Origin: an uncultured Chloroflexia bacterium
GTDB lineage: Bacteria > Chloroflexota > Limnocylindria > Limnocylindrales > CSP1-4
Assembly: GCA_963829155.1 (NCBI GenBank)
Contig: CAWHIA010000006.1
Location: forward strand, 107,812 to 171,811
Length of the DNA stretch: 64,000 bases
Reading direction: 5' to 3'
The notes below the pieces were generated by a model that did no database searches, had not been told where the DNA came from, and was given only the letters and a program-made list of their open reading frames with translations. The translations under genes were made by a program, and so were the position numbers. Below are positions 1 through 19,433 of this stretch, in pieces; position 1 is the first letter of the stretch, and each line of letters begins with the position of its first letter.

Positions 1-2
1 TC

Positions 3-1313: not shown

Positions 1314-2489
1314 CTAGTCGATCAACACTAGCGGGGCGAGGCCGGCGAGCGGTCCGTCCGGTCGCGGCGCGGCGAGCTCGGGCTCCGATGCGCCGCCTTC
1401 GGACCGCGCGGCCAGGCGCTCCTCGAGCTGCGCGACCAGGCTGGGGACGCCGGACTCGAGCGCTGCCCCGTACGCGGGCCCGATGTGGGCCATCTGCTCC
1501 CGTTCGCGCTTCGTCTTCGCCGCCCCGAAGCGCATGTGGATCGTCGTGCCCGACGTCGTCGGCTCGAACTCGATCGTGTGCAGCACCTTCACGGGTCCCT
1601 GCGGCGTGTCGAGGATCGTCCGGTCCGTGACGTAGTCGTAGGGCCGCCAGTCGAGGATCTCCTCGACGGCCGCGTCCTTGCCGTGGCGGCAATGGTTGGC
1701 CGAGCCCGCGCCGCGCCGGCCGCCCGTCGCGCCCTCCACCCTCACCTCCGTCACCCAAGGTTGCCAGCTCATCCGTTGCCCGGGCGTCGTCAAGAACTCC
1801 CAGGCCACCTGGGGCGGGACGGTCGTCGGCACCGAGACCGTGAGGGTCGACTCCGCGGGCGTCACGAAGACCCGCGCGCGGGCCTCCTCTTCCTGCCACC
1901 GCCGCTCGAGGTCGAGCACCCAGGCCTGGACGTCGCCGATCCGCTCGTAGGTCTCGACGTGCGGGCGCAGGCCGAGGGCGGCGCCGTCGAGGCCCGCGGC
2001 GTCGAGGCTGGCCTGGCTCAGCAGGGCGTAGGCCTCGATCCCGGTCCGTTCGACGACATCGTTCTTGAGCAGCCGATGGACGATTATCACGTCCGAGCCC
2101 AGCAGCTCCTGCCGGCCGGCGACCTTCTGGACGATGGCCTCCCCGTGGTGGGCGACGAACTTGAGGTCGAGGTCAGGGATCCGGCTGCAGGCGTTGCACT
2201 CGCACGACGTGGCCTGCCGGACGTCGCGCCGCCTGCGGCGGAAGCCGAAGTAGCAGCGCTCGATGGTGTCGAGCAGCATGGACCCGTCGATGGTCTCGCC
2301 GATGGCGTACGTGAACGCCGCATCGCCCTCGAGCTTGGCAAGCCGGAAGCCGGGACGGAGGGCGGTGACCACGGCGCCGATGAGGTCCGCGAGGATGTCC
2401 TGAGCGTGGTCGAGCTCGACGTCCGCCAGGTACCCGGTGTACCCGGAGATGTCGGCGATGAGGAAGGTGGCGGGCTGGGTGGGAGCCAT
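1314..2489 (-). CDS. DUF2652-like (class III nucleotidyl-cyclase fold) domain fused to an SRPBCC/START domain
   Basis: 'IADISGYTGY', 'KLEGDA', 'CECNAC', 'LKFVAHHGE', 'DVIIVHRLLKN', followed by a START-like domain ('VPPQVAWEFLT', 'EEILDWRPYDYVT'). Start placed at MAPTQ (ATG 2489). Confidence 0.8.
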   Translation of the reverse strand: MAPTQPATFLIADISGYTGYLADVELDHAQDILADLIGAVVTALRPGFRLAKLEGDAAFTYAIGETIDGSMLLDTIERCYFGFRRRRRDVRQATSCECNACSRIPDLDLKFVAHHGEAIVQKVAGRQELLGSDVIIVHRLLKNDVVERTGIEAYALLSQASLDAAGLDGAALGLRPHVETYERIGDVQAWVLDLERRWQEEEARARVFVTPAESTLTVSVPTTVPPQVAWEFLTTPGQRMSWQPWVTEVRVEGATGGRRGAGSANHCRHGKDAAVEEILDWRPYDYVTDRTILDTPQGPVKVLHTIEFEPTTSGTTIHMRFGAAKTKREREQMAHIGPAYGAALESGVPSLVAQLEERLAARSEGGASEPELAAPRPDGPLAGLAPLVLID

Positions 2490-2496
2490 CGGCACC

Positions 2497-2526
2497 ACTG
2501 TACGGCCGCGCCGTCTCGCGATTGAA
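2497..2526 (-). promoter_or_regulatory. Candidate sigma70 promoter for a leaderless DUF2652 transcript
   Basis: Minus strand TTCAAT-N18-TACAGT; the -10 box lies 7 nt before the ATG at 2489; no SD sequence. Confidence 0.4.
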
Positions 2527-2548
2527 GCCCGATGATGAGCACGTGCAG

Positions 2549-5500
2549 ATGCCCGCCACCGGAACCCTCACCTTCCTGTTCACCGACCTGGAGGGCAGCA
2601 CGCGCCTGTGGGAGCAGTACCCGGACGGCATGCAGGTCGCCCTCCGCGGGCACGACGCGATCCTGCGCGACGCCATCGAGGGATCCGGCGGCACGGTGAT
2701 CAAGACGACCGGCGACGGGATGATGGCGGTCTTCCCCGGCGCGCTCGACGCGGTCACGGCGAGCCTCGCGGCGCAGCGCGGCCTGATCGCCGAGCCGTGG
2801 GGCGAGACCGGTCCGCTGCGGGTGCGGATGGGGATCCACTGCGGGCAGGCCGAGCAGCGGGGCGGTGACTACTTCGGCACCACCGTGAACCGCGCCGCCC
2901 GAATCATGGCGGCCGGTCACGGCGGCCAGGTGCTGCTCTCGGCGTCTGCCGGGGCGCTCGCCACGGAGCGACTCCCGGACGGTGCCGGCCTCCTCGACCT
3001 CGGTGAGCACCACCTGCGCGACCTCGGGCGCCCGGAGCACCTGTACCAGCTCGTCCACCCGGACCTGCCATCCCAGTTCCCCGCGCTGGTCACCGCCCGG
3101 AGTGCGGGCACCGACCTGCCGTCGAGGGTGGCCGCGCTCATCGGCAGGACCGACGAGATCGGGCAGATCACCGATCGCCTGGCCACGGGGTCCGTCCGCC
3201 TGCTGACGCTCACGGGACCAGGCGGCACGGGCAAGACGACGCTCGCCATCCGCGTGGCCGGCGACCTCGCGGGTCGGTTCCGGGACGGCGTGTCCTTCGT
3301 CGACCTGTCCAGCGTCCGGGACACGAATGCCGTCCTCGTGGCGATCGCGCGCGCCGTCGGGCTGGGCGAGATCATCGAGCGCGATCTCCAGGACGAGCTC
3401 ACCGACCACCTCCGCGAGCGCCGGATGCTGATCGTCCTCGACAACCTCGAGCAGGTCACCGAAGCGGCGTCCATCGTCGCCGGCCTGCTGAGCGCCTGCC
3501 CGGAGCTGACGGTCCTCGCCACGAGTCGAGAGGCGCTCCACGTCCGAGCTGAGCAGGTCTTCGCCGTTCCCCCGCTCGCGCTCCCGCCGCCCAACCGCGG
3601 TCAGGCCACGGCGCAGGCCATCGGCGAGTTCGAGGCCGTGGCTCTGTTCGTCGACCGCGCGCGCGTCGTCGACCCGGATTTCGCGCTGACCGACGACAAC
3701 GCCCCCGCCGTCGCGGAGATCTGCCGCCGGCTCGATGGCTTGCCGCTCGCGATCGAGCTCGCGGCCGCCCGCCTCGCCCTGTTCTCGCCAGACGTGCTCC
3801 GCGACCGGCTCGACGACCGGCTCGGACTGCTGCGCAGCGGTCCCCGCGATCTCCCCGAGCGCCAGCAGACCCTTCGGGCGACCGTGGACTGGAGCTACGA
3901 GCTCCTCGAGCCCGCGGAGCAACACCTGTTCGAGCTGGTGTCGGTGTTCGCCGATGCGGAAGTCTCAGCCGTCGAGGCCGTGGCCGACGACGTGGGAGCG
4001 ATCGACGGCGTGGTGGTCGACGTGCTCGATGGCCTGGCCGGGCTCGTCGAGAAGAGCCTCCTCCGCAGGGTGGACGTTCCAGGCGCCGAGCCGCGCGTCG
4101 CGATGCTCCAGACGATCCGGGCCTTCGCCACCGACCGGCTCGACCAGCGACCGGACGTCGCGTCGCGGGCGCGCCGGGCGCACGCGACCCACTACGCGGC
4201 GCTCGCGGGCCGGCTCCGAGGGGACCTGGGCGGGGCCGGGCGCGAGGTCGCCCTCGACCGATTGGCCGCCGACGTCGCGAACCTGCGCATCGCGTGGGCC
4301 TTCTGGGTGGCCGCGGGCGACTTCGAGCAGCTGGACAGGCTGGCCAAGGCGCTGCTCGTCCTCGACGACGCCCACGGGTGGTACCTCGACACCGTCGGGC
4401 TGGCCTCGGACATGCTCGCCGTCCTCGACGCCGTCCCGACCTCGTCCGAGCGGATCAACCAGGAGATCGCGCTCCGGACGACACTTGCCCGGGCACTCAT
4501 GGCCACGAAGGGCTTCACGCCGGAGGTGGAAGCCGCCTTCTCGAGCGCCCTCGAGCGGTTCGAGCGCGGCGTCGACGTCGGGCTGCAGTTCTCCGTGCTC
4601 AGGGGCCTCGCCAGCCTGTACCTGTTCCGCGCGCAGCTCGACAAGTCGGCCGAGATCGGCCAGCAGATCCTCGCCCTCGGCGAATTGGAGGGCGACTCGA
4701 GCATGTTGATCGATGGCCATCTGCTCGTGGGCACGACGCTTATGAGCTTCCACGACCTCAATCGCGGGCTCGAGCACTTCGACACGGCCATCGCCCTGTT
4801 CCCGACTCCGCTGAAAGGAAGCCGGACCGCACGCGTCGGCAACGACCCGCGTGTCGCGTGCCTGACGACCTCCGCCTTCACCCTGTGGATGCTGGGCCGG
4901 GCGGATCGCGCCGCCGAGCGCGCGGATGCCGCGTTGGCGCTCGCGGCGGCGCTCGACCACCCGTTCACCACCGCCTACGCCCGGTATCACGCGGGCCTGC
5001 TGCGTCTGTGGCGGCGCGAACCGGACGCGGCGCACTCCCTCGCGACCGAGCTCCTCGACCTCGCCGGCGAGCACGAGTTCCGCATCTGGAGCGCAGCCGG
5101 CACCGTGCTGCGCGGGGCTGCACGCGTCGGCCTCGGCCGGGTCGACGAAGGCCTGGCCGACGTCCGGAACGGGATCGGCCTCTACGGCGAGCTCCGGTCG
5201 CCGCCCATCTTCTGGCCGTTCCTGCTGTTCGTGCAGGCCCGCGCCTGCGCCGACGCTGGACGACCCGCAGAGGGGCTTTCGGCCGTCGAGCGCGCAATGG
5301 ACGTCCTCGGGGAAGGCTCCGATGCGACCCTCATGCCCGAGCTATGGATCGCGAAGGGCGACCTGGTCCGAGTCCTGGCGGCCGATGACGGCGGCGATGT
5401 CGCCGAGGCCGAGCCGTGGTATCGAAACGCACTCGACCGGGCGACCGAGCTCGGCGCCCTCACGGCGCGGCTCCGGGCCTCGACCCGGCTCGCCCGATTG

Positions 5501-5632
5501 CGGGTCGAGGCCGGCAATCCGGCCGCGGCGTCGGCCCTCCTCGGCCCGATCCTTGGATCGCTCACCGAGGGCTTCGAGACCGCCGATGTGCGCGAGGCGC
5601 GTGAGCTGCTCGAGGACGCCGCCACGGCCTGA
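2549..5632 (+). CDS. Adenylate/guanylate cyclase - STAND (NB-ARC-like) ATPase - TPR protein
   Basis: 'FLFTDLEGST', 'KTTGDG', 'RMGIHCG', 'DYFGTTVNRAAR' (cyclase); Walker A 'GPGGTGKT'; Walker B 'LIVLDNLEQ'; 'LDGLPLAIELAAAR'; helical repeat C-terminus. 1027 aa from ATG 2549. Confidence 0.9.
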   Translation: MPATGTLTFLFTDLEGSTRLWEQYPDGMQVALRGHDAILRDAIEGSGGTVIKTTGDGMMAVFPGALDAVTASLAAQRGLIAEPWGETGPLRVRMGIHCGQAEQRGGDYFGTTVNRAARIMAAGHGGQVLLSASAGALATERLPDGAGLLDLGEHHLRDLGRPEHLYQLVHPDLPSQFPALVTARSAGTDLPSRVAALIGRTDEIGQITDRLATGSVRLLTLTGPGGTGKTTLAIRVAGDLAGRFRDGVSFVDLSSVRDTNAVLVAIARAVGLGEIIERDLQDELTDHLRERRMLIVLDNLEQVTEAASIVAGLLSACPELTVLATSREALHVRAEQVFAVPPLALPPPNRGQATAQAIGEFEAVALFVDRARVVDPDFALTDDNAPAVAEICRRLDGLPLAIELAAARLALFSPDVLRDRLDDRLGLLRSGPRDLPERQQTLRATVDWSYELLEPAEQHLFELVSVFADAEVSAVEAVADDVGAIDGVVVDVLDGLAGLVEKSLLRRVDVPGAEPRVAMLQTIRAFATDRLDQRPDVASRARRAHATHYAALAGRLRGDLGGAGREVALDRLAADVANLRIAWAFWVAAGDFEQLDRLAKALLVLDDAHGWYLDTVGLASDMLAVLDAVPTSSERINQEIALRTTLARALMATKGFTPEVEAAFSSALERFERGVDVGLQFSVLRGLASLYLFRAQLDKSAEIGQQILALGELEGDSSMLIDGHLLVGTTLMSFHDLNRGLEHFDTAIALFPTPLKGSRTARVGNDPRVACLTTSAFTLWMLGRADRAAERADAALALAAALDHPFTTAYARYHAGLLRLWRREPDAAHSLATELLDLAGEHEFRIWSAAGTVLRGAARVGLGRVDEGLADVRNGIGLYGELRSPPIFWPFLLFVQARACADAGRPAEGLSAVERAMDVLGEGSDATLMPELWIAKGDLVRVLAADDGGDVAEAEPWYRNALDRATELGALTARLRASTRLARLRVEAGNPAAASALLGPILGSLTEGFETADVREARELLEDAATA

Positions 5633-5813
5633 CGCGCGTCGCCCGCCGGCGGGCCTCGAAGCTCGCGATCACCGGGGTTGTGCGACATCGGATAATCACC
5701 GTGCGCGTTGGCCTCCAGGCATCGCGCCGACATCGCTCCCGTGCTGCAGCCCGACCATCGCGTTCCATGACCGGGCACGGTTCGGGGGGACCGCGAAGCG
5801 ATGGTGCGCGCAC

Positions 5814-8800
5814 ATGTCCCTGTGGGATGACCTGCCCGCGACACTCCGGGATTCCGGATCGGCCGATGGCCTGCGCCCCCTGCTGGAGAACGTCGACACC
5901 CCGGCCTCCACGACGGAGTCGGACGGCGAGGGCACGTGGCGCGTCTATCGCGACTCGTTCGGCGGCAGTGATCCACTGTCCATCGACCCGGCGACGGGTT
6001 CGTTTACGCGGGGCCCGGTCGCCAATCGTGCAACCACGCCGCTCGAGTTTCCGGACCCGCGGGTCAATGTCGAGCTCGCGCTCCGGCTCGACGGCGCGGG
6101 AGATCCCGACGGCACGGTCCGGCTGACCGTTGCGACCCCGTCCGCGATCCTCCGCCTGCCGTTCCTTCGAGGTGCCCTGCTGGACGCGCAGGGCCAGCTC
6201 CGCCCAGACCCCGCCAACCCGGATGTCCGGTTCCTGCTGCCGGCCTTCCGGATCCGAGTCCGGCGAGAAGCGGCCGGCGGCGTCTCCGCATCGCTGCTGT
6301 CGGCCTCGACGGGTGCGCCTGTCGACCAGATCTACGACTTCGTTCGCATGGAGCCCGCGCATGCCCTGATCGGTCCCGGGAACACCGTGGGCTTCGCCTT
6401 CCGTGCGGCCGTCCTGGACCTCTCGGGCACGGCCGGTCCGTCCGGCGTGCCGCCGGAGGCACGAGCCATGCCGGGCGACTGGCAGGGGCTGTGGCTGCCG
6501 GAGGCGCGGCTGTTCGTGTCGCCCAACGGCCTCGAGGGGCTGGCCGTCAGCGCGGGCGTGCGTGACCTGTGGATCGGGATCGGCCGCCACGCCGGGGTGA
6601 CCGGTGTGTTCGAGGCCGAAGTCGTCAACCGCGGCGCCGCCCCGAAGGTCCGGCTGCGCTTCCAGACGCCGTCGGGCGAGTGGATCGGGGTCCCGGACAT
6701 CGACGGCGGAACGCCGATCGACGTGCCCGAGACGTCGACCGTGTACGTGGACGGGAACGGCGGGATCGCCCCGCTCGCCTACACGCTCAGGGTGGGTGGC
6801 GGCGCGTCCACCAGCACCGATCGCGCCGCCGTCACGGCACCTGGGGCCGGGACCGTGTCGATCGCGGCGACGGTGACGGACGGGGGCGGCCACACCGCGA
6901 CCAGGACGATCAGCGTTCGGCGGCGGACCGGTGGCCCGGGCGGCGGACCCGCTGCGCCCGGCGGCCAGGCCATTGCGGTGCGGATGACCAGTGCGACCCC
7001 GAGCCGGGTCGTCGTCACGGGGCAGACAGCGACCAGCGTGACGGTTGCGCTCGTGCCGGGCGACGGCGACATCACCTGGACCTGGCCGGGTGCCGCGCCG
7101 GTCACGGCGGCAACAGCGACCGTCCCCGTGGCGGCCGGCGCGCCGGTCGTCGTCACCGCGGTCCGAACGCACGCGGCGGCCGCGGTCCTGCCGATCGACG
7201 CGTACACGCTGTTCAACCGCCCGTCGGCGACCGAAGGCAACGCGTTCGCCGACAACCCGCTCAACGTGCACGCCGAGCCGGCCAGCGACCGAGACGGCTG
7301 GGGCCCGTCACCCGTCCTGATGGACCAGGCGTTCTGCGATCGGATCGCGGCCCTGCCGGCGGGCACCACCTGGTCAGTCCAGGGCTGGGCGAGCTACGAA
7401 GGCGACGACAGCGCAGGTCAACGGGGGCGCAACCAGGCGCTGAGCGAGCGGCGCCGGGACGCCCTCATCCGCATCCTCGAGTGCGCCGGGGCGACCGGCG
7501 TCTCCTCCGGGACAGCGCATGGCCACGACGCCGCGCGGGACGGCGTGTCGCCTGACCCGCCCGATCCGGCGCCGGCCCCGGGCGTCCCGAGCTGGTGGCA
7601 CGCGCGCGCGACGGCCTCCCTCGGCGCGGCCACGACCGAGACGGTCACGGCCGAGCTCACGCGCCCGCCGGCGCAGGCGCCGCTCGACCCCGACCCGCGG
7701 CCCACCGACCCTGGCCGTCCGGACTTCTTCCGCAAGATCGGCGTCCGGGTCGAGCTCATCCGCAGCACGTTCGTCCGCGCTGAGCTGTACGGCGAGTTCG
7801 ATATCCACACGGCGGCAGAGGAGCGGATCGAGGCCAACACCACCGCGACGCCCCCGCCCCGGACGAACCCGAACGACGGGATCTGCACGTTCCTCGTCCG
7901 ACTGCGAATCGCCGAAGACCGCTCATCGTGGCTCGTGAGCGCCGAGCTGCGCGCGATCGACGCTGACCTCGACGGCCTGGCGAAGCTCGAGCGCGGCGCC
8001 ACCGGCGACCAGACGGCGGTGGACATCATCGGCTCCGTCGCCGCCCTCGGGCCCCTGCTCGCCGCGGCAACGCCGCCCTCCCCGACCGCCGGCGAGCTGG
8101 TCCCCATGGTCATCCTCACGGGCGCGGCCGTCGGGATCGGGGCCAGCGGCGTGCTCCAGACGCGCTATGTGATCCTGCGCGGCGGCGAGCTCGTGATCTC
8201 GGACGGGATCGTGGATCCGGCGACCGGCAGCGGCCCGACGACGACCCAGGTGAGCGTCCTGCTCGACGTGGAGACCGCGTTCACGTTCGACCTCGGGTTC
8301 ATCAAGGTCCGTCCGGAGCAGCCCATCGTCACGCGCTACAAGTCGCTCGGCCTGCGGTCAACTTGGGACGCGCGACCGCAGCCGGACGGGACCATCGAGT
8401 ACGTCCCGCTGCCCGTCTTCGACCCATCGAAGGGCTACACGCTCGACGTGCCGGCCGGCTCGCTCGTCGCCGCGGATCCGCTCGGCGAGGTGCTGCGCGT
8501 CCTGGGCGTCCGGGTCAGCCGCGACAACCCGACCTACCTCGAGGTCGAGGTCGGCATGGGCGTCGACCTCGGGATCATCCGCGTCGACACCGTTCGCGTC
8601 CGGCTCAGGCTCGACCAGGCCGAGCTGCCACAGCTGACCAAGCTCGGCGCGAGCATCGACGTACCGGGCGTCCTCCACGGTGCCGGGTTCGTCGAGATCA
8701 CCCAGTTCGGGTTCAAGGGCGCGCTCGACCTGACGGTTCAGCCGCTGAACGTGCGTGTCGCCGCCGTGCTCGCCGTCGAGACGATCAACGGCGTCACCGG

Positions 8801-11800
8801 TGTGCTCGTCGGGGCCGAGGTCGAGTTCCCGGTGCCGATCCCGCTCGGCAACTCCGGCCTCGGGCTGTACGGATTCCTTGGCGGGGTCGGCGTCAACTAC
8901 GGGCGCAAGGAACCCGTCGGCGTCCAGGCGGCCGCGCTCAAGTGGCTCGAGCAGCAGCTGGGCCCGTCGCGCAACAACGTGATGCACCCCGACGGGTGGG
9001 AGCACCGGGCCGGCGCCTACGCGTTCGCGGCCGGCATCCTGCTGGGCACGGCAGAGGGCGGGTTCATCGTCCACCTCAAGGGCATCGTGATCATCGAGGT
9101 GCCCGGCCCGCGCCTGATGCTGGTGATGAAGGCGGACGTCCTCAAGATGCCGCCTGTCCTCAAGAGCCAGAGCAGCGCGACGTTCCTGGCCGTCCTGGAC
9201 ATCGACTTCGGGCGAGGGACGATCACGCTGGGCGTGGTCGCTGCCTACCAGATCCAGTCGGTGCTCAAGGTCCGGATCCCGGTCACGGCCTTCTTCGACA
9301 CCAACCACCCGGAGCAATGGTTCGTCGACCTGGGCTCGTACACCGAGCCGGTCACGGTCGAGGTGCTCGACGTCCTCACCGGCATGGGCTACCTGATGGT
9401 CCATGGCGCCGGCCTGACGATCCCATCCCTGTCGGTCACGACGACCGGGCTGACGATCGCCGTCGGCTTCCACATCTCCGCGGTGCTGATGGGCAGCAAG
9501 TCCGTCGGGCTGTACTTCGAGGTCGCGGCCGGCTTTGATGCGCTCGTCTCGTTCGAGCCGTTCCTGATCGCCGGCCGGATCTATGCGCGGGGCGAGCTGC
9601 GCCTGTTCATCGTGGGCATCTCGGCGAGTGCCGAGCTGGACGTGCTCGTCGGCCGCCAGCTGGTCAACGGGGCCGAGGTCGAGAAGAGCTGGATCCACGG
9701 CGAGGTCTGTGGCGAGGTTGACTTCTTCTTCTTCAGCGTCAGTGCTTGCCTGGACTTCACGCTCGGCACCAATGCACCGCCGCCCCCTGCCGCTCCGCTC
9801 CTGGTCAAGGGCGTCAGCCTCGTCAATCGATCGCCGGCGCTCGTCGAGGGCACGGCGACCGACCGTGCGGTGGACGGGAAGCTCGGCGACGCGTCCGAGC
9901 AGGACGCGTTCGCGCCCGTCGCCGGCGTCCCGGCCGCTCCGGTCCCGAGCGTCCCGCTCGACGCCATTCCGGTCGTGCTGTTCGACGTCGCGCCCGTCGT
10001 CGCCGGCGGCGGCATCGTCCTGGGCGGCGTGGCGGCGGGCGCAAGTGGGCTGCCAGCCAACCCGTGGACGCGACGGGGCGACCTGTGGTGGCGATACAAG
10101 CTCACTGGCGTCGAGCTCGTGGGCGCCGTACAGCCGGCACCGCCGGCCGGCAAGACGCCCGCTACGTGGTGGGCGCGCGGGCTGCCGGGCGATCCGCAGG
10201 TCGGTCCGGCGCTCGCCCTGCTCGACTGGCTGCCGACGCCGACCCCGCGAGCCGTTCCCTACGGCGAGCGCCTCGATACGACGATCCGCGACCGCTGGGG
10301 TCGCGTCTGTGACCCGGTCGCGGAGCCCGCCGCGGTCCTGTGGACCTTCGACGGCAAGCCGATCGGACCGAGCGTGGCGGGCTGGCGGCTGGCCGGCGTG
10401 CCGTGGCCGGACGATCCCGGATCGTTCCGGTCGTCCCCGGTCAGTGGGCGCCTCCGGGTGACGGAGCGTTGGCGTTCCGGCGACCCCTACACGGACGTCC
10501 TCCAGGGCACCGAGCCCGCCGTGGCCGTCGGCGATGTGGTCGCGTGCCCCAGGCCCGAGGGCGAACCCATCGTGTCGATCGACGCGTGGGCGAAGGGCCA
10601 GCCACTCACGTTCAGCCACGCTGCGCTGCCGATGACGGGCGGTTCGCTTCAGGGTGTGGCGGAGCTGATCGCCGACGGCACGTCGCTGCTGGACCTCGCC
10701 GCGCGATGGGCGGACGAGGGGTGGGACGGTCGCCTGAGCCGGCTGCCGCTCGACTGCGAGGGCCGGATCCTTCGCTCGCCATCCGGCGACGACGAAGAGC
10801 CCGCGCCCGACGGGGAGCCCGAGGACCAGCAGCTCGTGCTCGACTCCTGGGGCAGGACGGGGTTCAAGCCGTCGGACCTCGAGGACTCGCTCCTGCTCCG
10901 CGCGGACGGCGGGCTCTCGTCCCTCCGGTTGCTGCTGCTCATCCCGCGCCGGTTCATCGAGCAGGGCCTGCTGGTGCTGCGATCGCGCGACGACACGGGC
11001 AACGTCGTCGACGAGCGGCGGATCACCGGTGGCGACATCGTGGGCGCCGGCAACCCCGTCCCCGCACGCTGGACGGATCCCGCAGGTCCGTGGGCCGACC
11101 CCGTCGAGCGCGCCGGCCGGATCGCGGCACGCGTCGATGCCCAGGAGCGGTCCCTGCTCGCGGTGCTGGTCTCGACCGACCTGCCGACCGACGTGGCGGA
11201 GGTCGAGCTGGGTTGGGATCGCGAGGGCCTCCGCAAGCACGAGCAGTCGGCATCCGCGTTCTGGCTGGTGGCTGCCGAGGGCCTGGTCGCGGCCGAGCGG
11301 TACCGCCACGACTGGGACACCTCCGTGCTCGATGAGGAGCGCTCCGTGCTTGAGACGGTCCTCACGCAGGATCCGGACGACCATGCCCTGCTCATCCCCG
11401 GCACCGCCTACACCGTACGCATCCGATGGCAGGGCCAGTCGGTGGACCAGGACGGTCAGCCGGCGCCGAACCATCCCGAGGGCTACGGCCCGATCCAGAC
11501 CCAGGAGTTCCGGTTCGACGCCGACGCTGCCGCCGAGGCGCCGACAGACCTCGGGCCCTGGATCCTCGCCTCCGCCCCGTCCATGAACGAGACGGGGATC
11601 CTGTGCCGCGAGCCCGTGCGGATCGCCCTCGCGACCCAGAACGTGGCGGCGCTGTTCGCGGCGTACGGCGAGGAGCTGCGCGTGCTCGTCCGGTCGGCGT
11701 CGGGACGCCACCCCGAGCCGCCCGGCGGCGGACCGGCGGGTGCGGCCGTGGCGATCCCCGTGGGAGTGGGCGGGATCGTCAAGGCCTCGTCGCCCGCCCT

Positions 11801-12602
11801 CGCCGTCCTGACACCGTTCGAACAGGCGGTGGGCGAGCTCGTCGGAACCATGCCCTGCATCAACGTCGTCGGGGACCGCACCCAGCACCACGTGATCGAG
11901 ATCGCGTACGCCTTCGAGCCGCTGACGGACTACCTGATCGACGTCGTCGCCGTCCCGTCCGGCGCGGCGGCATCGGCGACGGGCCGGCGAATCCACCGTA
12001 TCGGCTTCACCTCGTCGCGTTTCGGGACGATCGGCGAGCTCGCCGACCTCACGCGCCTGGCCGATGTCGAGCACCGGCTGTGCCCGACGCCCGCGGCGCT
12101 CATGGCGCTCCCCGTGGTTCCCGCGGGGAACCAACTGGACGACGCGTTCACGGCCGCCGGTCTCGGGGCACCGCAGGTCCCGCGCTACCCGAGGGTGCAG
12201 GTGCTCTGGTCGCCGGACGCGGTCCCGCAGCCCATCGCCGTCGTGGTCGAGGGCAGCGAGTCCATGTGGCGCACACGCCCGATGCCCAAGCAGGTGCCGG
12301 GGCCGCCGGATGCGTCCGATCCCGGGCACAAGTGGTGGGCGGCCGTTCGCGGCGACTGGCTCTCGCTGGCCACGTCGACCGCCGTCGTTGCCGCGGGCGA
12401 GCCGGCCCGGGCCGGGATCACCCGGATTGTGCCCGGCCCCGGCGGGACGCGGGCGGTGGTGCTGCTCGCCGCCGGTGCCCGCGGATCAGAGGTCAGGCTG
12501 GACCTCGTCGTGGCGGGCGATGCGCTCGCTGGAAGCGCGGAGCAGCGGTCGGAAGCGGTACGGCTGCTGCTCGACCGGGCGCCCTGGGAGGTTGTGGACT
12601 GA
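5814..12602 (+). CDS. Giant hypothetical protein (2262 aa): Ig/PKD-like modules, OmpA-like domain, DUF6603-like beta-rich region
   Basis: Open frame with strong GC3 bias from ATG 5814 (MSLWDD). OmpA-like 'VQGWASYEG...NQALSERRRDALIRIL' at ~7370-7490; 'EVEFPVPIPLGNSGLGLYGFLGGVGVNYG' at ~8815-8900. No N-terminal signal peptide. The ORF track's upstream 296 aa are a shadow extension. Confidence 0.8.
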   Translation: MSLWDDLPATLRDSGSADGLRPLLENVDTPASTTESDGEGTWRVYRDSFGGSDPLSIDPATGSFTRGPVANRATTPLEFPDPRVNVELALRLDGAGDPDGTVRLTVATPSAILRLPFLRGALLDAQGQLRPDPANPDVRFLLPAFRIRVRREAAGGVSASLLSASTGAPVDQIYDFVRMEPAHALIGPGNTVGFAFRAAVLDLSGTAGPSGVPPEARAMPGDWQGLWLPEARLFVSPNGLEGLAVSAGVRDLWIGIGRHAGVTGVFEAEVVNRGAAPKVRLRFQTPSGEWIGVPDIDGGTPIDVPETSTVYVDGNGGIAPLAYTLRVGGGASTSTDRAAVTAPGAGTVSIAATVTDGGGHTATRTISVRRRTGGPGGGPAAPGGQAIAVRMTSATPSRVVVTGQTATSVTVALVPGDGDITWTWPGAAPVTAATATVPVAAGAPVVVTAVRTHAAAAVLPIDAYTLFNRPSATEGNAFADNPLNVHAEPASDRDGWGPSPVLMDQAFCDRIAALPAGTTWSVQGWASYEGDDSAGQRGRNQALSERRRDALIRILECAGATGVSSGTAHGHDAARDGVSPDPPDPAPAPGVPSWWHARATASLGAATTETVTAELTRPPAQAPLDPDPRPTDPGRPDFFRKIGVRVELIRSTFVRAELYGEFDIHTAAEERIEANTTATPPPRTNPNDGICTFLVRLRIAEDRSSWLVSAELRAIDADLDGLAKLERGATGDQTAVDIIGSVAALGPLLAAATPPSPTAGELVPMVILTGAAVGIGASGVLQTRYVILRGGELVISDGIVDPATGSGPTTTQVSVLLDVETAFTFDLGFIKVRPEQPIVTRYKSLGLRSTWDARPQPDGTIEYVPLPVFDPSKGYTLDVPAGSLVAADPLGEVLRVLGVRVSRDNPTYLEVEVGMGVDLGIIRVDTVRVRLRLDQAELPQLTKLGASIDVPGVLHGAGFVEITQFGFKGALDLTVQPLNVRVAAVLAVETINGVTGVLVGAEVEFPVPIPLGNSGLGLYGFLGGVGVNYGRKEPVGVQAAALKWLEQQLGPSRNNVMHPDGWEHRAGAYAFAAGILLGTAEGGFIVHLKGIVIIEVPGPRLMLVMKADVLKMPPVLKSQSSATFLAVLDIDFGRGTITLGVVAAYQIQSVLKVRIPVTAFFDTNHPEQWFVDLGSYTEPVTVEVLDVLTGMGYLMVHGAGLTIPSLSVTTTGLTIAVGFHISAVLMGSKSVGLYFEVAAGFDALVSFEPFLIAGRIYARGELRLFIVGISASAELDVLVGRQLVNGAEVEKSWIHGEVCGEVDFFFFSVSACLDFTLGTNAPPPPAAPLLVKGVSLVNRSPALVEGTATDRAVDGKLGDASEQDAFAPVAGVPAAPVPSVPLDAIPVVLFDVAPVVAGGGIVLGGVAAGASGLPANPWTRRGDLWWRYKLTGVELVGAVQPAPPAGKTPATWWARGLPGDPQVGPALALLDWLPTPTPRAVPYGERLDTTIRDRWGRVCDPVAEPAAVLWTFDGKPIGPSVAGWRLAGVPWPDDPGSFRSSPVSGRLRVTERWRSGDPYTDVLQGTEPAVAVGDVVACPRPEGEPIVSIDAWAKGQPLTFSHAALPMTGGSLQGVAELIADGTSLLDLAARWADEGWDGRLSRLPLDCEGRILRSPSGDDEEPAPDGEPEDQQLVLDSWGRTGFKPSDLEDSLLLRADGGLSSLRLLLLIPRRFIEQGLLVLRSRDDTGNVVDERRITGGDIVGAGNPVPARWTDPAGPWADPVERAGRIAARVDAQERSLLAVLVSTDLPTDVAEVELGWDREGLRKHEQSASAFWLVAAEGLVAAERYRHDWDTSVLDEERSVLETVLTQDPDDHALLIPGTAYTVRIRWQGQSVDQDGQPAPNHPEGYGPIQTQEFRFDADAAAEAPTDLGPWILASAPSMNETGILCREPVRIALATQNVAALFAAYGEELRVLVRSASGRHPEPPGGGPAGAAVAIPVGVGGIVKASSPALAVLTPFEQAVGELVGTMPCINVVGDRTQHHVIEIAYAFEPLTDYLIDVVAVPSGAAASATGRRIHRIGFTSSRFGTIGELADLTRLADVEHRLCPTPAALMALPVVPAGNQLDDAFTAAGLGAPQVPRYPRVQVLWSPDAVPQPIAVVVEGSESMWRTRPMPKQVPGPPDASDPGHKWWAAVRGDWLSLATSTAVVAAGEPARAGITRIVPGPGGTRAVVLLAAGARGSEVRLDLVVAGDALAGSAEQRSEAVRLLLDRAPWEVVD

Positions 12603-15600
12603 TGGCCGGGCTGCGCATCGCCTCGGCGTACTGGTTCCGCGCCGAGGGCGCCGTCATCCCATGGTCGGAGGTCTTCGAGCGTGAGCTCGAACGGCTCCGT
12701 GGCGCCGAGGTCGACGAGCGTCTCCTCGCCCGGCGCAAGGAGGCGATCGGCAAGACCCCGGTCCAGGTCGCGCTGCGCTGGTCGTGCGCGGACCGCCTGG
12801 GCGTGCCGATCGAGCCGTTCACCGTGTGGGTACGGCTCCCGCACGACGAGGCGAAGCAGGTGGATGTCCAGGAGAGCACCGTCGACGGCGGTACCCGCCT
12901 GTCTTGGAGGGGCGCGGCCGCGATCATCCAGGTGAGCTGCGACGTCGTCGACCCGTCGCGCGCGGTGGGCCTGTTCGCGAGCCGCGGCGGCCTGTCGCTG
13001 CGCGAGACGGTCGGCGCGGTGTCGGTCCGCCAGCCGAACGGCGGCCGGGTCTCCCTCGATGTGCGCACGCCGGGCGCCACCCGGGCGTTGCTCGTGAACG
13101 GCACCAACCCGCAAGTCGGCATCCGGCTCCTTCAGGACGTCCTCGACGATCCGGGTTGGCGCGAGCTCGAGCGCGTCGGCCTGCCTGCCGACGACCCGTG
13201 GGCCGGCACGGCCTACCGCCCCACGCCGCAGGGCCTCGTGACGGCCCTCACGGATCCGGTCACGGCCGCGCTCGAGCGACTCGACCGCGGCAGCCCGCCG
13301 ATCGGCTGGGAGGTTGCGACCGAGACCGGACGGCTCGCCCCGACCTGGGCTGCGCCCGACCCCACGCGACTCGTGGAGGAGATCCGCAAGACGGTGCTGC
13401 CGGTCGTCGAGCCGATCCTCGCGCCTGGCATCCTGCCGCCCGACCAGGCGGCCGTTCCGCCGTGGACGCCGACGGTTGCCGGTCCCCAACGCGGGACCCG
13501 CGCTGGGACGCTGCCCGCGAGTGCGAAGATGGCCGCCCTGTCGCTGTTGACGTTGCCGGCGGCGTCCGAGCCGTTCCTGGCCCTCGGCCTCGGGTTCGGG
13601 ACGGCGTACCGCCTCGAGGACGGGCACGACGTCGGCATCGACGGTCCGCTGTCGCGCGCCGAGTTCCTGGTCACGGGCGAGTACGACGAGACGCCACGCC
13701 GCACCGGCCCGGCGACGGTCTGCGCGTACGTGCCCTCGCCGGCCGTCCATGGCCGAATGACCCGGCCGACGAACCTCGTCGCGGACCGGGCAGGGCTCGT
13801 GGCCCCGGACGCGACCGACGAACCGTGGCGCGAGTCCGTGCGCGTGACCTGGGATCGGCTCCCGTCCGCGGCCGCCCTCGGGCGCCCATCCGGCGCGCTG
13901 GTCGCCCGCTTCGACCCTGCCGGTGCGCCGGTCGCCGAGGCGCTCGTCGAACGCCGGCCCGCGGGCGACCTCCGTCCCCTTATCCCCGTGCCGGATGGAC
14001 CACCCGATACGCCTGGCCACGCCCGGACATCGCTCGTCGACCGGGCCGCCGAGATCCCGCTGGGCAGCGGCGGTCGAAGCGCCGGCTACGCCGTAGCAGT
14101 CGAAGACGTGTTCGGCGTCTGGTCGACGTGGGAGGACGTGACGTACTCGGGGCTGGAACCCGGACCTCCGCTGCCTCGGGTCCTGGCGCTCTCGCTCTCG
14201 AGCACGTACTCCGGGGCCGCCGTCTGTCCGGCCACGCTCGAGGTCGAGCTGTCGGTCGACTGGGCGGACCGCACGCCGACGGGTGTCGACCTGGCCGCCT
14301 CCTTCTTCCCGATGTCCGGGCCGAACGCCGGGCCGCCCCCGGGCATCGACCCGGACTTGCCGGCACCGCCGGGCTGCTTCCGGCGAGACGTCGCGATCCC
14401 GTTCACCGGCGCAAGCCTCGGCCCCGCGAGTGGTCTCACGATCGATCATCTCGACTCGGCCGGCCAGGAGCTCGTGGCTCCGGGAAACCTGCAGGGCATC
14501 CAGGGCCGCCGGTACCGCGTCCGACTCCCGATCCCCACGCTCGACTTCGGGTCGACGCCGCGCTGGGGCGTCCAGGTCTGGCTGCGGACCTCCCTCCTGG
14601 CGCTTCCCGGCGTGATGCCGTGGTCGCCCGATCCGGGCCATCCGGCCCTGACTGCCGCGGCGAGCCCAGTCCCGGCCGCGCCGCTCCCGGCGCCCCTGCC
14701 GCCGGGCGTCCCCCTCGGGTCCACGCCGGACGCCCAGGGGCAGAGCCATGCTCGCGTTCTGTGGTCGATCCCGGCCGGCTCCGACGTCGCGACGGTCGTC
14801 GTGTGGGAGGCGTCGGAGTCGGCAATCCGATCGGCCGCGTCGGAGGCGCCGCGCGCGCCCGATGGCCAGCTCCCGGGCTGGCGGCTGGCCGACCTCCGGG
14901 TGGCGTACGACGGCCTGACGCCCGCACGACGTCGCAGCGCGTTCCGGAAGCTCCGCGAGCTCCCGGGGACCGCCCGCGACACAGACATTGCGCTCCCGAA
15001 GGGGTCCACGGACATCCACCTGTTTGCGGTCACGACCATCACGTCGACGGGGGTCGAGTCGCCGTGGCCGGCCGGTACCCCCGCGCATGAGCAGCTTCAG
15101 GCGGTCATGGCGCCGCGACTCCGGCAGCCCGCAGCACCCACCTTGCGCACCACCGTCGCCGCGGACGGCACGGTCACCATGCGGGCCGCCAGCGCGAGCC
15201 GGATTCCTGTCCAATGGTTCCGCCTGTTCCGCACGCGGTCGGCGGTTGCGGCGCGATCGGCCGAGACGATGGGCCCGCCGTTCGCGGTGGTGGGGGCGGT
15301 CGCGCCCGCTCCCGGCACGCTCCCCGACCCGGGCACCGGCGAGCTGACCTACACGGCGACGTGGAGCGGTTCGTTCGACCCGTCGTGGGACGAGTGGCTC
15401 GTCCGGGCTGTCGCCGTGCCAGTGGACGGCGTGCCGCCGGAGGCCGTGCGCGGCATTCCGTCGCCAGCCTGCGACGTGGTCGGTCTGGTGGTCCTGCCCC
15501 CGGGGCCGCCCGACCTCGCGCTCCTCGTCGGCGACATCTGGGGCGCGGCGCACGATGGCGTCGTCGTCCGGGCCTCGACATCCGCGCCCGTCCGCACCGT

Positions 15601-16258
15601 CGCGCTCGGGAGCCACCGGATCGGCGGCAACGCCGGCGCCGACACCATCGCGCTGGTGTCGCTCGAGTCGCTCGCCGAGGACCTGGCCGAGCCGCCCGCC
15701 GGCGCGACGCCCGGCCCCGCGCTCGTGCGCGGGGAGCGGGCGACCGGTCGAACGCCGCTGACGGTTTGGTTCACGCGCCCTGTCGCGGCCGATCCCGTCG
15801 CCGTCACGCTGCGCGTGGTGGATCCGCTTGGTCGGATCACCGAGCAGGCGCTGACGGTGCCAGGCTGGGTCCCACCCGCGCCGCCGACGCTCGACTTGCT
15901 CGACGTCGTCACGCTCGTTGGACGCGGCACGGTGGTCACCATCCGCTCCGACGCCCCGATCGACGCCAGTCCGCCGTTCGTGATGGACGTCGTTGCCCGT
16001 CGTTCAGGTGGCCGCAGGCCGACGCCGTTCCCGCCACTGGGTATTCCCCAGGTCCTCACCCGGTCGTTCCCGTTGGATACGATCCCCGAACGCCCAGGCC
16101 CGTTCCCGCTTGCCCGGCCGATTCAAGCGATCCGAACCACCGGAGGCGTTCCCTTCGAATACGAAGTCCTGATCCGCATGGAGCCACCATTCGCGGCGCG
16201 GGTCACCATCGTGGCGCCCGACGGCGCCCGTGCATCGATCGATGTGGCGGTCCCGTAG
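12602..16258 (+). CDS. Large hypothetical protein (1218 aa) with probable tandem FnIII/Ig-like beta-sandwich modules
   Basis: TGATG overlap with the upstream giant gene. Pro/Trp-rich beta-strand patterns such as 'VRVTWDR', 'YAVAVEDVFGVWSTW', 'FAVTTITSTGVESPW'. No signal peptide. Confidence 0.75.
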   Translation: MAGLRIASAYWFRAEGAVIPWSEVFERELERLRGAEVDERLLARRKEAIGKTPVQVALRWSCADRLGVPIEPFTVWVRLPHDEAKQVDVQESTVDGGTRLSWRGAAAIIQVSCDVVDPSRAVGLFASRGGLSLRETVGAVSVRQPNGGRVSLDVRTPGATRALLVNGTNPQVGIRLLQDVLDDPGWRELERVGLPADDPWAGTAYRPTPQGLVTALTDPVTAALERLDRGSPPIGWEVATETGRLAPTWAAPDPTRLVEEIRKTVLPVVEPILAPGILPPDQAAVPPWTPTVAGPQRGTRAGTLPASAKMAALSLLTLPAASEPFLALGLGFGTAYRLEDGHDVGIDGPLSRAEFLVTGEYDETPRRTGPATVCAYVPSPAVHGRMTRPTNLVADRAGLVAPDATDEPWRESVRVTWDRLPSAAALGRPSGALVARFDPAGAPVAEALVERRPAGDLRPLIPVPDGPPDTPGHARTSLVDRAAEIPLGSGGRSAGYAVAVEDVFGVWSTWEDVTYSGLEPGPPLPRVLALSLSSTYSGAAVCPATLEVELSVDWADRTPTGVDLAASFFPMSGPNAGPPPGIDPDLPAPPGCFRRDVAIPFTGASLGPASGLTIDHLDSAGQELVAPGNLQGIQGRRYRVRLPIPTLDFGSTPRWGVQVWLRTSLLALPGVMPWSPDPGHPALTAAASPVPAAPLPAPLPPGVPLGSTPDAQGQSHARVLWSIPAGSDVATVVVWEASESAIRSAASEAPRAPDGQLPGWRLADLRVAYDGLTPARRRSAFRKLRELPGTARDTDIALPKGSTDIHLFAVTTITSTGVESPWPAGTPAHEQLQAVMAPRLRQPAAPTLRTTVAADGTVTMRAASASRIPVQWFRLFRTRSAVAARSAETMGPPFAVVGAVAPAPGTLPDPGTGELTYTATWSGSFDPSWDEWLVRAVAVPVDGVPPEAVRGIPSPACDVVGLVVLPPGPPDLALLVGDIWGAAHDGVVVRASTSAPVRTVALGSHRIGGNAGADTIALVSLESLAEDLAEPPAGATPGPALVRGERATGRTPLTVWFTRPVAADPVAVTLRVVDPLGRITEQALTVPGWVPPAPPTLDLLDVVTLVGRGTVVTIRSDAPIDASPPFVMDVVARRSGGRRPTPFPPLGIPQVLTRSFPLDTIPERPGPFPLARPIQAIRTTGGVPFEYEVLIRMEPPFAARVTIVAPDGARASIDVAVP

Positions 16259-16261: not shown

Positions 16262-16507
16262 TTACTGCTGGTAGCGCTCCACGACCTCCGCCGGGCGGAG
16301 CTGCGCCTCCTCGGGGTCGAGGCCGGCGTCGCGGCGCGCCTGGCGCTGGTGGAGCAGGTCGTAGCACCGGTCGAGCTCGACCTTGATCGTGTCCAGGCGC
16401 TCCTGGTCGGCGGTGCCGAGCCCCCCACCCGCCGAGGCGCGCTCCCAGAGCTGCGCCTCCTCGTTGGCGAGGGCGTTGATGTGGTCCAGGATCGGGCGGT
16501 CCGTCAT
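16262..16507 (-). CDS. DUF2630 family small protein
   Basis: 81 aa; 'ILDHINALANEEAQLW', 'LDRCYDLLHQRQARRDAGLDP...RPAEVVERYQQ'. Confidence 0.8.
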   Translation of the reverse strand: MTDRPILDHINALANEEAQLWERASAGGGLGTADQERLDTIKVELDRCYDLLHQRQARRDAGLDPEEAQLRPAEVVERYQQ

Positions 16508-16599
16508 GGGTGAAGCTCCGGTGCGGTGACTCGAGACGAGCCTACCGCGCCATCGCCTGTGGCGGCGGCTGGCGCGGTTCGTCTACCTGGGTTCCTCGG

Positions 16600-17127
16600 C
16601 TACCGGGCGGTCGCGTGCGTCCGCGACGCGAGCCGCGACTCGAGGCCGGGGACGGCGAGCGTCGCCAGCCCAACGACGATGCCGGCGACCAGCAGGAGCG
16701 CCCGAATCGTCGGGTCGACCGAGAGGCCGAGCGCCGCGTCGATCCCGATGGCACCCGGACCGGCCAGGCCGACGGCGGCCGCGCCGACGCCGAGGACGAG
16801 CGGGAACTCGATCCCGGACTTGCTGTTGAAGAAGCCGTGCGGCAGGTGGACCTTGCCGATGATCACGGTGGTCTGCGCAACGAGGATCGCGGCCACGAGC
16901 GGGGTCAGGAAGCCGACCGCGAGCAGCAGGCCGCCGACGAGCTCGACCAGGGCCGAGACGGTCCCGAACAGCTTGGCGGGCCGGAAGCCCATGTGCTCGA
17001 TGATGCCCGTCCAGGCGTTCAGCCCGGGGCCGCCCCACCAGCCGAAGACCTTCTGCGCGCCGTGCGCGGCGAACGTGAGCCCCACCGCGAGCTGGAGGAT
17101 GAAGAGAGAGAGTTCGTTTGCGTCCAT
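16600..17127 (-). CDS. DoxX family membrane protein
   Basis: 'GLTFAAHGAQKVFGWWGGPGL', 'ELVGGLLLAVGFLTP', 'GIEFPLVL'. Confidence 0.9.
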   Translation of the reverse strand: MDANELSLFILQLAVGLTFAAHGAQKVFGWWGGPGLNAWTGIIEHMGFRPAKLFGTVSALVELVGGLLLAVGFLTPLVAAILVAQTTVIIGKVHLPHGFFNSKSGIEFPLVLGVGAAAVGLAGPGAIGIDAALGLSVDPTIRALLLVAGIVVGLATLAVPGLESRLASRTHATAR

Positions 17128-17184
17128 GTTCGTTCCGTAGCCTCGATGTGTGTTGATGGCAACACCACTTGTCCGACACCAAGA

Positions 17185-17217
17185 ACGCTACGCCTAGATA
17201 GTTGCAATGTCAACGAT
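17185..17217 (-). promoter_or_regulatory. doxX promoter overlapped by an inverted-repeat operator (MarR-like)
   Basis: Minus strand TTGACA (17213-17208)-N17-TAGCGT (17190-17185). The imperfect palindrome ATAGTTG-CAATGT-CAACGAT (17198-17217) covers the -35 box within an AT-rich patch. Confidence 0.6.
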
Positions 17218-17273
17218 ATTCTGGGACATGCGGCTCTCGACCGCCGATCGGCCGAGATGCGATCCTCCGCGTC

Positions 17274-17843
17274 ATGGGCGAGCCGGGTCGGGTCGAGGTG
17301 GTCTGCGGGCCGATGTTCGCGGGCAAGACCGAGGAGCTGCTGCGGCGCGTCCGGCGCGCGACGATCGCGGGCCGCCGGGTCGTCGTGTTCAACCACGCGC
17401 TCGACACGCGGCACGGCGCCGACCGCCTCGCCTCGCACGCGGGCACCGACTTCCCGTCGCTGGCCGCGTCGAGCCCAAACGAGATCGAGGCGGCCGTTCC
17501 GGACGGCACGGACGTGGTGGCGATCGACGAGGCGCAATTCTTCGGGCCCTCGATCGTCCCGGTGGTCGGCCGGCTCGCCGATCGTGGCATCGTCGTCATC
17601 GTCGCGGGGCTCGACGTCACCTTCGACGGCCGCCCGTTCGAGCCGCTCCCCTCCCTCATGGCGCTGGCGGAGCGGGTCGACAAGCTGACCGCGATCTGCA
17701 CCGTGTGCGGTGAGGAGGCGGTCTTCCACGTCAAGCTCGCGGCGACCGCGGCCGGCCCCGATGACCTCGTCGCGGCCAACGTGGGCGGGACGGACCTCTA
17801 CCAGGCGCGCTGCCGGCGCCACTTCACGATGGCAGCCCCCTGA
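17274..17843 (+). CDS. tdk: Thymidine kinase
   Basis: 'GPMFAGKTEEL', 'AIDEAQF', 'AGLDVTFDGRPF', zinc-site residues 'CTVCG' and 'YQARCRRH'. Confidence 0.95.
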   Translation: MGEPGRVEVVCGPMFAGKTEELLRRVRRATIAGRRVVVFNHALDTRHGADRLASHAGTDFPSLAASSPNEIEAAVPDGTDVVAIDEAQFFGPSIVPVVGRLADRGIVVIVAGLDVTFDGRPFEPLPSLMALAERVDKLTAICTVCGEEAVFHVKLAATAAGPDDLVAANVGGTDLYQARCRRHFTMAAP

Positions 17844-19357: not shown

Positions 19358-19433
19358 TGGCGAGTGGCCAAATTGGTAAGGCACCTGACTCTGGATCAGG
19401 AAATTGAAGGTTCGAGTCCTTCCTCGCCAGCCA
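19358..19433 (+). tRNA. tRNA-Gln (anticodon CTG) with encoded CCA
   Basis: TGGCGAG/CTCGCCA acceptor stem (U1-A72, Gln-type), D arm, CCTGA-CTCTGGA-TCAGG anticodon arm, GAAGG-TTCGAGT-CCTTC T arm, G-CCA end; 76 nt. Confidence 0.98.

Follow-up and report, generated by a model that had tools for sequence, protein, structure and literature searches.

The Tc (ABC) toxins and the giant barrels of the outer membrane are among the nearest described points of comparison for a bacterial locus that encodes two very large proteins, and which we analyse here. TcA is built as a helical shell and channel, and SlpA of Deinococcus joins a wall-binding module to a giant barrel. The family DUF6603 is catalogued, but no published function or experimental work was found for the cassette that carries it, and our literature search returned no paper on DUF6603, PF20248 or IPR046538. 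The locus lies in a stretch of 64,000 nucleotides (nt; hereafter the window) on contig 6 of a 3.4-Mb metagenome-assembled genome (MAG) with a completeness of 72%; the G+C content of the window is ~72%. Two adjacent genes in the window encode the giant proteins P1 and P2, which are very probably subunits A and B of a cassette that is widespread but sporadic and uncharacterised, and that comprises a DUF6603-containing A protein of ~2250-2480 amino acids (aa), a B protein of ~1080-1415 aa and often a C protein of ~1030-1090 aa. It is well supported that the window holds a reduced, two-gene actinobacterial A+B form, the minimal cassette, with no functional tie to the STAND gene found upstream.

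A coupled gene pair and its wider cassette

The length of an open reading frame (ORF) is not in itself proof of P1 or P2, because long antisense ORFs arise at 72% G+C, and two such shadows, 1323 and 1143 aa long, do cover the same DNA. Nevertheless, four lines of evidence show that both are real genes. G+C by codon position is 0.73/0.53/0.91 in P1 and 0.75/0.59/0.88 in P2, and the antisense frame shows the inverted pattern (0.91/0.50/0.74). Full-length homologues are plentiful for both proteins (for P1, 176 of ~2250 aa), and the ratio of non-synonymous to synonymous substitution rates (dN/dS), taken from seven closely related pairs, lies at 0.11-0.44 for P1 and P2, with similar dN in both genes. 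The P1 start at 5814 is backed by an N-terminus, M-S/T-L-W-D, that is kept in 67 loci. Translation of the two frames gives no internal stops, and the junction reads GACTGATGGCC, such that the ATG of P2 shares its A with the TGA of P1 in a one-base overlap. The two intact, TGATG-joined genes described in a first-pass annotation of this DNA are borne out by these readings.

To follow the pair beyond the window, 75 related loci were considered, 73 from a scan of one genome per species and two from look-ups. A P2 homologue stands directly after P1 in all 68 loci that have room for it. The genes overlap by one base in 58 loci and by four bases in 2, and are separated by 1-3 nt in 4; the pairwise identities of P1 track those of P2 closely across 65 loci (r = 0.977). 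These data support an obligate, translationally coupled pair, and they answer in the affirmative the earlier question of whether homologues always occur together. Obligate pairing is consistent with a two-subunit complex, which P1 and P2 may form. In a Haloechinothrix MAG (locus L075, 1914-8353) the P1 homology ends at about residue 988 and the P2 homology starts 9 nt earlier in another frame; either gene A has lost a large internal segment there or the assembly is at fault.

P1 is confirmed as a member of Pfam DUF6603. The family profile PF20248 matches residues 894-1131 (E 3.2e-14) with 52.8 bits against a curated gathering cut-off of 27, spanning profile positions 8-246 of 502, and 16 of 22 P1 homologues are matched as well. 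The DUF6603-like strands recognised by eye in the first-pass annotation are thereby verified. This is the only curated family match of the pair: NCBIfam, PADLOC and PHROGs gave no match for P1 or P2, and Pfam matched neither P2 nor any of 27 P2 homologues. Across these four collections no enzyme or nucleoside triphosphatase (NTPase) domain was found in P1, P2 or the scanned homologues, in agreement with the absence of a recognisable enzyme motif noted earlier. The view that no characterised function attaches to this architecture also holds, as no family assignment goes past DUF6603 and no paper was found. An hhalign comparison of the A family with the B family detected no common domain.

The relatives extend well beyond the actinobacterial pair. 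A P2 profile search found 802 representative clusters at 50% identity, 601 of them at E <=1e-10 and 382 at E <=1e-30, nearly all of 1000-1400 aa and matching end to end. The distant B genes that were looked up always come after an A gene, with ends overlapping or abutting, in A-B-C or A-B-x cassettes (Table 1). P1 aligns over nearly its whole length with the A proteins of these cassettes, at 27-33% identity (31% with gene A of three-gene cassettes). Gene C is the part that the window form lacks: tblastn with two C proteins was negative for the window and for every two-gene locus. There was also no PDB sequence match for the C protein. Where relatives have accessory genes or domains, these have binding-type folds (TIG, hemopexin, NHL/YNCE). 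The region downstream of A-B-C in L078 and L079, at 13.5-21.5 kb, encodes a caspase-like Peptidase_C14 protein and an FGE-sulfatase/Por_Secre_tail protein, and the B protein of these loci bears an extra NHL/YNCE-like propeller; all three are possible lineage-specific accessories. For the Rhizobium tropici cassette, a literature search of main texts, and of the supplements of one transcriptome paper, yielded no mention of the plasmid-c locus tags.

Table 1. Features of the P1/P2 locus in the window, with the related cassettes used for comparison. Positions are those of the window unless a record is named; residues are those of the protein concerned.
Feature	Position	Strand	Residues or size	Basis or remark
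P1, subunit A, DUF6603-containing giant protein	5814..12602	+	2262 aa	Intact ORF; G+C at third codon position 0.91
P2, subunit B	12602..16258	+	1218 aa	Intact ORF; G+C at third codon position 0.88
TGATG stop/start overlap, translational coupling	12600..12604	+		Read directly from sequence
P1 N-terminal conserved domain	5814..6683	+	~1-290	Block of high conservation, with WQGLxLPExRxF and GVRDLWIG
P1, two probable Ig-like beta-sandwich modules	6696..7208	+	~295-465	Weak profile matches
P1, putative OmpA-like (peptidoglycan-binding type) module	7311..7538	+	~500-575	Weak profile matches
P1 DUF6603 core, ~28 predicted long amphipathic beta-strands	7719..9773	+	~636-1320	PF20248; AlphaFold2 model
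P1, predicted hydrophobic Gly/Ala-rich helical hairpin, early in core	8013..8153	+	734-751 and 762-778	Kyte-Doolittle peaks 1.69 and 1.89
P1 C-terminal region, ending ...PWE	9804..12599	+	1331-2262	Conserved along its length
P2 N-terminal alpha/beta part, predicted long-stranded beta domain and helical segment	12602..13651	+	~1-350	DSSP of AlphaFold2 model
P2, predicted array of ~eight beta-sandwich (Ig/FN3/MG-like) domains	13652..16255	+		DSSP of AlphaFold2 model
Upstream STAND gene (adenylate/guanylate cyclase, NB-ARC, MalT-like TPR)	2522..5632	+	1036 aa	Co-oriented, 181 nt before P1
tRNA gene	19358..19430	+
A-B-C cassette L076			2317+1082+1031 aa
A-B-C cassette L077, Micromonospora			2402+1235+1081 aa
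A-B-C cassette L078 and L079			2297+1415+1062 aa
A-B-C cassette L081			2279+1147+1059 aa
A-B-C cassette L111, R. tropici CIAT 899 pRtrCIAT899c	Record ~21.8-36.2 kb		2480+1225+1087 aa
Variant cassette L080	Record 461-10501		A(1785)-B(1114) aa, then 434 aa	Hemopexin-domain gene in place of C

The order and size of the genes invite comparison with Tc toxins, and the cassette could be imagined as a distant analogue in which A is a TcA-like injector and B, with C where present, holds the cargo, the whole being freed by cell lysis. The genes are leaderless and giant, the A-B(-C) order is coupled, the sizes resemble those of TcA, TcB and TcC, there are Ig-like binding modules, and the cassette has spread horizontally. 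Against these likenesses, no Tc, RHS/YD or VRP1 family is matched, no Tc structure appears in the top 50 Foldseek matches of either protein model, and B is an array of beta-sandwiches, not a cocoon. A variable C-terminal toxin is also absent, and in its two-gene form the system would have nothing to deliver. The probability that we give to a Tc analogue is very small.

The cassette is distributed sporadically. The pair is present in only one of 37 genomes from the window's own genus, in 5 of 151 Microbacterium genomes, and in 8 of 81 Kribbella genomes (seven of them close, at 54% identity, and one distant, at 29%). A tree of the P1 core places the window copy as sister to a Jiangellaceae/Kribbellaceae clade, with a best identity of 69%, and most families form single clades. 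The patchy counts and the tree together indicate an accessory element that is occasionally gained and then inherited, and not a core gene; the window copy was probably acquired horizontally. No relatives were detected by tblastn in 50,697 phage genomes, and one plasmid record carries a relative, the 2.08-Mb pRtrCIAT899c of R. tropici CIAT 899. Most of the hosts are monoderm Actinomycetota and lack an outer membrane. Close actinobacterial-type copies (52-58% identity to P1) are also seen in MAGs labelled Brevundimonas, Granulosicoccus, Alphaproteobacteria and Polaromonas (L007, L031, L042 and L055). One of these copies sits on a 1.16-Mb contig, and the Brevundimonas copy nests within Cellulomonas. 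Such copies are either mis-binned contigs or the product of recent transfer to Proteobacteria.

Predicted architecture of the two subunits

Neither protein begins with a recognisable export signal. In the first 70 residues of P1 and P2, a heuristic scan detected neither a stretch of >=7 hydrophobic residues nor a twin-arginine motif, in line with the earlier statement that Sec and Tat signals are missing. The first hydrophobic peak comes at residue 432 in P1 and at residue 959 in P2.

The N-terminal domain of P1 can be aligned with distant A proteins from residue 114. It is followed by a block of two probable immunoglobulin-like (Ig-like) modules and one putative OmpA-like module. In the Ig-like region, the P1-family profile that includes distant relatives matches the Ig-like phage decoration proteins 5lxk and 8zvi (E 0.0025-0.0045), and there is no Pfam match. 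Family profiles of P1 also match the peptidoglycan-binding domains of RmpM, OprF, Pal and YfiB in the PDB (E 0.001-0.003). The Pfam OmpA family (PF00691) is below threshold in P1 and is matched by 1 of 22 homologues, at 6e-5. Residues S527, E529, N540, L543, S544, R546 and R547 are invariant in the OmpA-like module, and the motif N-x2-L-S-x-R-R is present. The Ig-like and OmpA-like calls are thus weakly supported: the modules that had been proposed for P1 are suggested by profile matches with E values of 0.001-0.0045, but not by any Pfam match in P1 itself. The 1785-aa A protein of L080 lacks precisely the Ig-Ig-OmpA block, which marks the block as an optional insert.

Structure models were made with AlphaFold2 (AF2) over residues 631-1665 of P1 and residues 1-1200 of P2. 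For P1, the overall predicted local distance difference test score (pLDDT) is 68.4 and the predicted template modelling score (pTM) is 0.41; the stretch 930-1320 is mostly at pLDDT 72-88, and residues 1331-1665 model poorly (pLDDT ~40-75). The model of the core contains 28 strands with a mean length of 12.9 residues, whose two faces, one strongly hydrophobic and one mixed, average +2.36 and -0.64 respectively on the Kyte-Doolittle scale. By comparison, the hydrophobic strand face averages +1.58 in P2. The Gly/Ala-rich hairpin is predicted to be helical at low confidence (pLDDT ~46-70), and its hydrophobic character is retained in A proteins of 27-33% identity. The best Foldseek matches of the core in the PDB are PapC/FimD, LptD, porins and Deinococcus SlpA, with E values of 7e-5 to 1e-2 and template modelling scores (TM-scores) of <=0.3. 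A comparison with the viral structure library BFVD gave nothing convincing. From the model, we read the P1 core as a very large amphipathic beta-meander that would not be a member of the matched barrel families. The C-terminal region ends in ...PWE, which is common to all nine diverse A proteins compared; W2258 and E2259 are invariant.

A sheet with one strongly hydrophobic face over ~28 strands might hold or shuttle lipids, by analogy with apoB/vitellogenin, LptD or AsmA/TamB, and this is the lipid-bridge idea of the first-pass annotation. LptD (E 2.4e-4) and ApoB100 (low probability, 0.13-0.23) do occur in the Foldseek list for the core. We nonetheless find a lipid-binding or lipid-transfer assembly highly unlikely, given that P1 and P2 have no N-terminal membrane anchor and no AsmA/TamB family match, and that no TamB-like structure is among the top Foldseek matches. 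Sporadic distribution also speaks against a core role in envelope biogenesis, and a bridge would need a second membrane, which most hosts lack.

P2 is modelled with much higher scores (pLDDT 90.6, pTM 0.62). By DSSP of the model, its N-terminal part has strands of up to 19 residues within 55-192 and helices within 219-342. Foldseek relates P2 to mastigoneme, alpha-2-macroglobulin (A2M)/complement and cytokine-receptor Ig/fibronectin type III (FN3) arrays, with E values of ~1e-11 and TM-scores of <=0.15. We are confident that P2 is predicted as a compact array of ~eight beta-sandwich domains, and the beta-sandwich string foreseen from the sequence is therefore upheld by the AF2 score together with the Foldseek matches.

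Sandwich arrays of this type occur in fibrillar adhesins, mastigonemes and PrgB, and it could be asked whether the pair is simply a structural protein of the surface or wall (an adhesin, a sheath or a wall-anchored scaffold) that is exported non-classically and kills nothing. The Ig-like and OmpA-like modules of P1 and the binding-type accessory domains of relatives would suit such a protein. However, signal peptide, sortase motif and secretion partner are all missing, P2 is predicted to be compact (pTM 0.62) and not fibre-like, and such a role would explain neither the hydrophobic hairpin of P1 nor the very large hydrophobic face of its sheet. A purely structural role is accordingly distinctly unlikely in our judgement.

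Genomic setting and the upstream STAND gene

The pair shares no conserved neighbour with its relatives: the most recurrent flanking gene family is found in <=10 of 63 loci. Upstream of the starts in related loci, the sole common element is a purine-rich ribosome-binding stretch. Scans for promoters and terminators on either side of the pair gave no match, and are uninformative at 72% G+C. An Rfam scan of the whole window returned a single match, a tRNA.

A co-oriented cyclase-STAND-TPR gene does lie just upstream, as had been reported (Table 1). It had been proposed that the pair might be a defence effector linked to this sensor, and a check had been suggested on whether homologues always lie near STAND, secretion or phage-tail genes; the data support no such link. 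No STAND gene stands upstream of the pair in any of the 75 related loci, and four same-genus genomes without the pair carry full-length orthologues of the STAND protein (72-73% identity), so the link is not supported. The gene is moreover one of five paralogues in its own genome, and the neighbours of its orthologues vary between same-genus genomes. In two Kribbella loci an NB-ARC gene lies ~2 kb downstream of the pair; it is unrelated, with only the NB-ARC part matching. The upstream protein looks like an ordinary actinobacterial signalling protein that is independent of the pair. Orientation, the short gap to P1 and weak PycC-like PADLOC matches of the cyclase domain are what favour an effector pair controlled by the cyclase-STAND-TPR protein, and in view of the counts above, together with the five-copy paralogue family, this explanation is close to refuted. 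Removing this incidental neighbour also removes a misleading lead. In short, the first-pass annotation was right about an obligate, uncharacterised pair that would fit a two-subunit complex, but the STAND connection is not supported.

The setting also bears on a stand-alone intracellular abortive-infection system, in which B would sense a cytoplasmic phage component and A would kill the infected cell by driving its hairpin and sheet into the producer membrane from the cytoplasmic side. We consider this unlikely, although it would account for the missing export signals of P1 and P2, the self-contained cassette, and a patchy accessory distribution like that of defence genes. Defence-type genes do lie near some copies (AbiEi at L001, NACHT at L077 and a caspase-like peptidase at L078), but these cases do not establish a systematic enrichment in defence islands. 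PADLOC gave no match, a module for binding peptidoglycan would be of little use in the cytoplasm, and ~3500 aa of non-enzymatic protein would be a very costly sensor and pore.

The wider surroundings of the window copy can be described from same-genus genomes. Convergent housekeeping-type genes begin 4 nt past P2. In one same-genus genome (L107, G029), the DUF2630, DoxX, thymidine kinase and MFS genes that flank the locus in the window (1-2567 and 16262-17843) lie together in another order, and a DUF2652 gene is found ~445 kb from them. Because the flank genes are rearranged and DUF2652 is distant there, the glyoxalase-DUF2652-STAND-P1-P2 block appears to sit at a rearranged junction. No uninterrupted site was seen in same-genus genomes, where the flanking genes are 445-557 kb apart or reordered, and no clean insertion boundary could be drawn. 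From ~18 kb on, G+C falls from ~0.73 to 0.66-0.70 (window 17.9-34 kb). A tRNA gene lies here (Table 1), the genes checked are hydrolases (alpha/beta hydrolase, epoxide hydrolase), and no integrase was seen among the genes tested.

A possible role at the envelope, and comparison with known systems

The explanation that we favour, while holding it as tentative and still short of an even chance, is that the giant A-B cassette acts on an envelope or membrane in microbial conflict. More doubtful is the particular mechanism that we infer, an energy-independent envelope-and-membrane complex, which involves complex formation, wall binding, membrane insertion, a biological role and a route out of the cell. 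The TGATG coupling would fix the ratio in which A and B are made, and the two would form a complex without any enzyme or NTPase. The Ig-like and OmpA-like modules of A might dock this complex on peptidoglycan, and the DUF6603 core, with its Gly/Ala hairpin set in a ~28-strand sheet that has one strongly hydrophobic face, would then insert into a lipid bilayer or wrap it. B, as a compact body of ~eight predicted beta-sandwich domains, could serve as a scaffold, a recognition part or a gate. The outcome would be a loss of membrane integrity, or the capture of lipid, in a target cell or in an infected producer. Such a role would be an accessory function in conflict (antagonism or abortive defence), and not housekeeping.

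Several points weigh against this envelope-and-membrane proposal. There is no signal peptide in P1 or P2, and no linked secretion or lysis genes were found among the neighbours in related loci; the route to the wall or to a foreign membrane is for this reason unexplained. Given this topology, the target may be another cell, reached after lysis or by unconventional export, or the producer's own membrane, as in abortive defence. The mostly monoderm hosts offer no outer membrane for a barrel. The model of the P1 core is moderate only (pLDDT 68, pTM 0.41), and its barrel-type matches, at TM-scores of <=0.3, may reflect a generic up-down beta-meander. Support for the OmpA-like and Ig-like modules is weak (E ~1e-3), and the block is dispensable in L080. 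Finally, soluble sandwiches also have amphipathic strands.

Purifying selection maintains this ~10 kb of coding sequence in hundreds of species, among them cultivable soil bacteria and a model rhizobium. It is possible, though again we would call it doubtful, that the cassette represents a class of giant protein machine not recognised before, which has neither leader nor NTPase, breaches or remodels membranes and has spread horizontally, with the two-gene form as its minimal working core. Its fold combination would be new: a module that docks on the wall, a hydrophobic hairpin rich in glycine, an amphipathic sheet of ~28 strands and a compact partner of eight sandwiches. If it acts on membranes while needing no ATP and no classical secretion signal, bacterial conflict or envelope biology would gain a new kind of machine, and the DUF6603 family a function. 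The two-gene form sets a minimal core for study, and R. tropici CIAT 899 and several cultivable Actinomycetota are tractable hosts.

Set beside Tc toxins, the pair shares leaderless, very large and coupled genes of similar sizes in a fixed order, the lack of a dedicated ATPase, horizontal spread, and Ig-like modules in the largest subunit. It differs in having no sequence or fold similarity to them, no RHS cocoon and no toxin cargo, and in a core that is predicted as a beta-meander, in contrast to the helical shell and channel of TcA. It does not belong with Tc (ABC) toxins, as Pfam and NCBIfam give no TcA-type or RHS/YD match and the top 50 Foldseek matches of each model in the PDB contain no Tc chain.

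The giant outer-membrane barrels (PapC/FimD, LptD, Deinococcus SlpA/SDBC and porins) resemble the predicted P1 core in having more than 24 long antiparallel amphipathic strands, and are its best Foldseek matches. P1 has no signal peptide and no sequence similarity to them, its TM-scores are <=0.3, barrel closure is not shown in the model, and the hosts are mostly monoderm; we do not class P1 as an usher, LptD or a porin. With OmpA/Pal/MotB domains the likeness is one of profile, as P1 residues ~500-620 align with RmpM, OprF, Pal and YfiB and the N-x2-L-S-x2-R core is kept. P1 falls below the Pfam threshold, however, the putative module is inside a leaderless giant protein, and the usual Asp appears, judging from the alignment, as Glu (E529).

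P2 resembles multi-domain sandwich proteins (A2M/complement macroglobulin (MG) domains, mastigoneme, FN3/Ig receptor ectodomains) in its predicted chain of ~eight sandwiches, a likeness of domain type only, whereas no signal peptide, A2M Pfam match or thioester motif is seen and TM-scores are <=0.15. Membership of the alpha-2-macroglobulin/thioester family is likewise rejected, with no Pfam match in P2 or 27 homologues and TM-scores of <0.1. Three further classes were considered and set aside. For STAND/NLR defence with a linked effector (e.g. Avs-like), there is no conserved co-occurrence and no PADLOC match for P1 or P2; for phage-tail-like or contractile injection systems, there is no PHROGs match, no phage-genome match and no conserved neighbour; and for AsmA/TamB bridge-like lipid transporters, there is no N-terminal hydrophobic segment, no Pfam match and nothing of the kind among the top Foldseek matches.

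The unpublished DUF6603 A-B(-C) cassette of Micromonospora, R. tropici and metagenomes differs from the window form in having gene C; P1 aligns over its full length with A, P2 is homologous to B, and stop and start are coupled. Overall, this cassette is far from every characterised system with which we have compared it.

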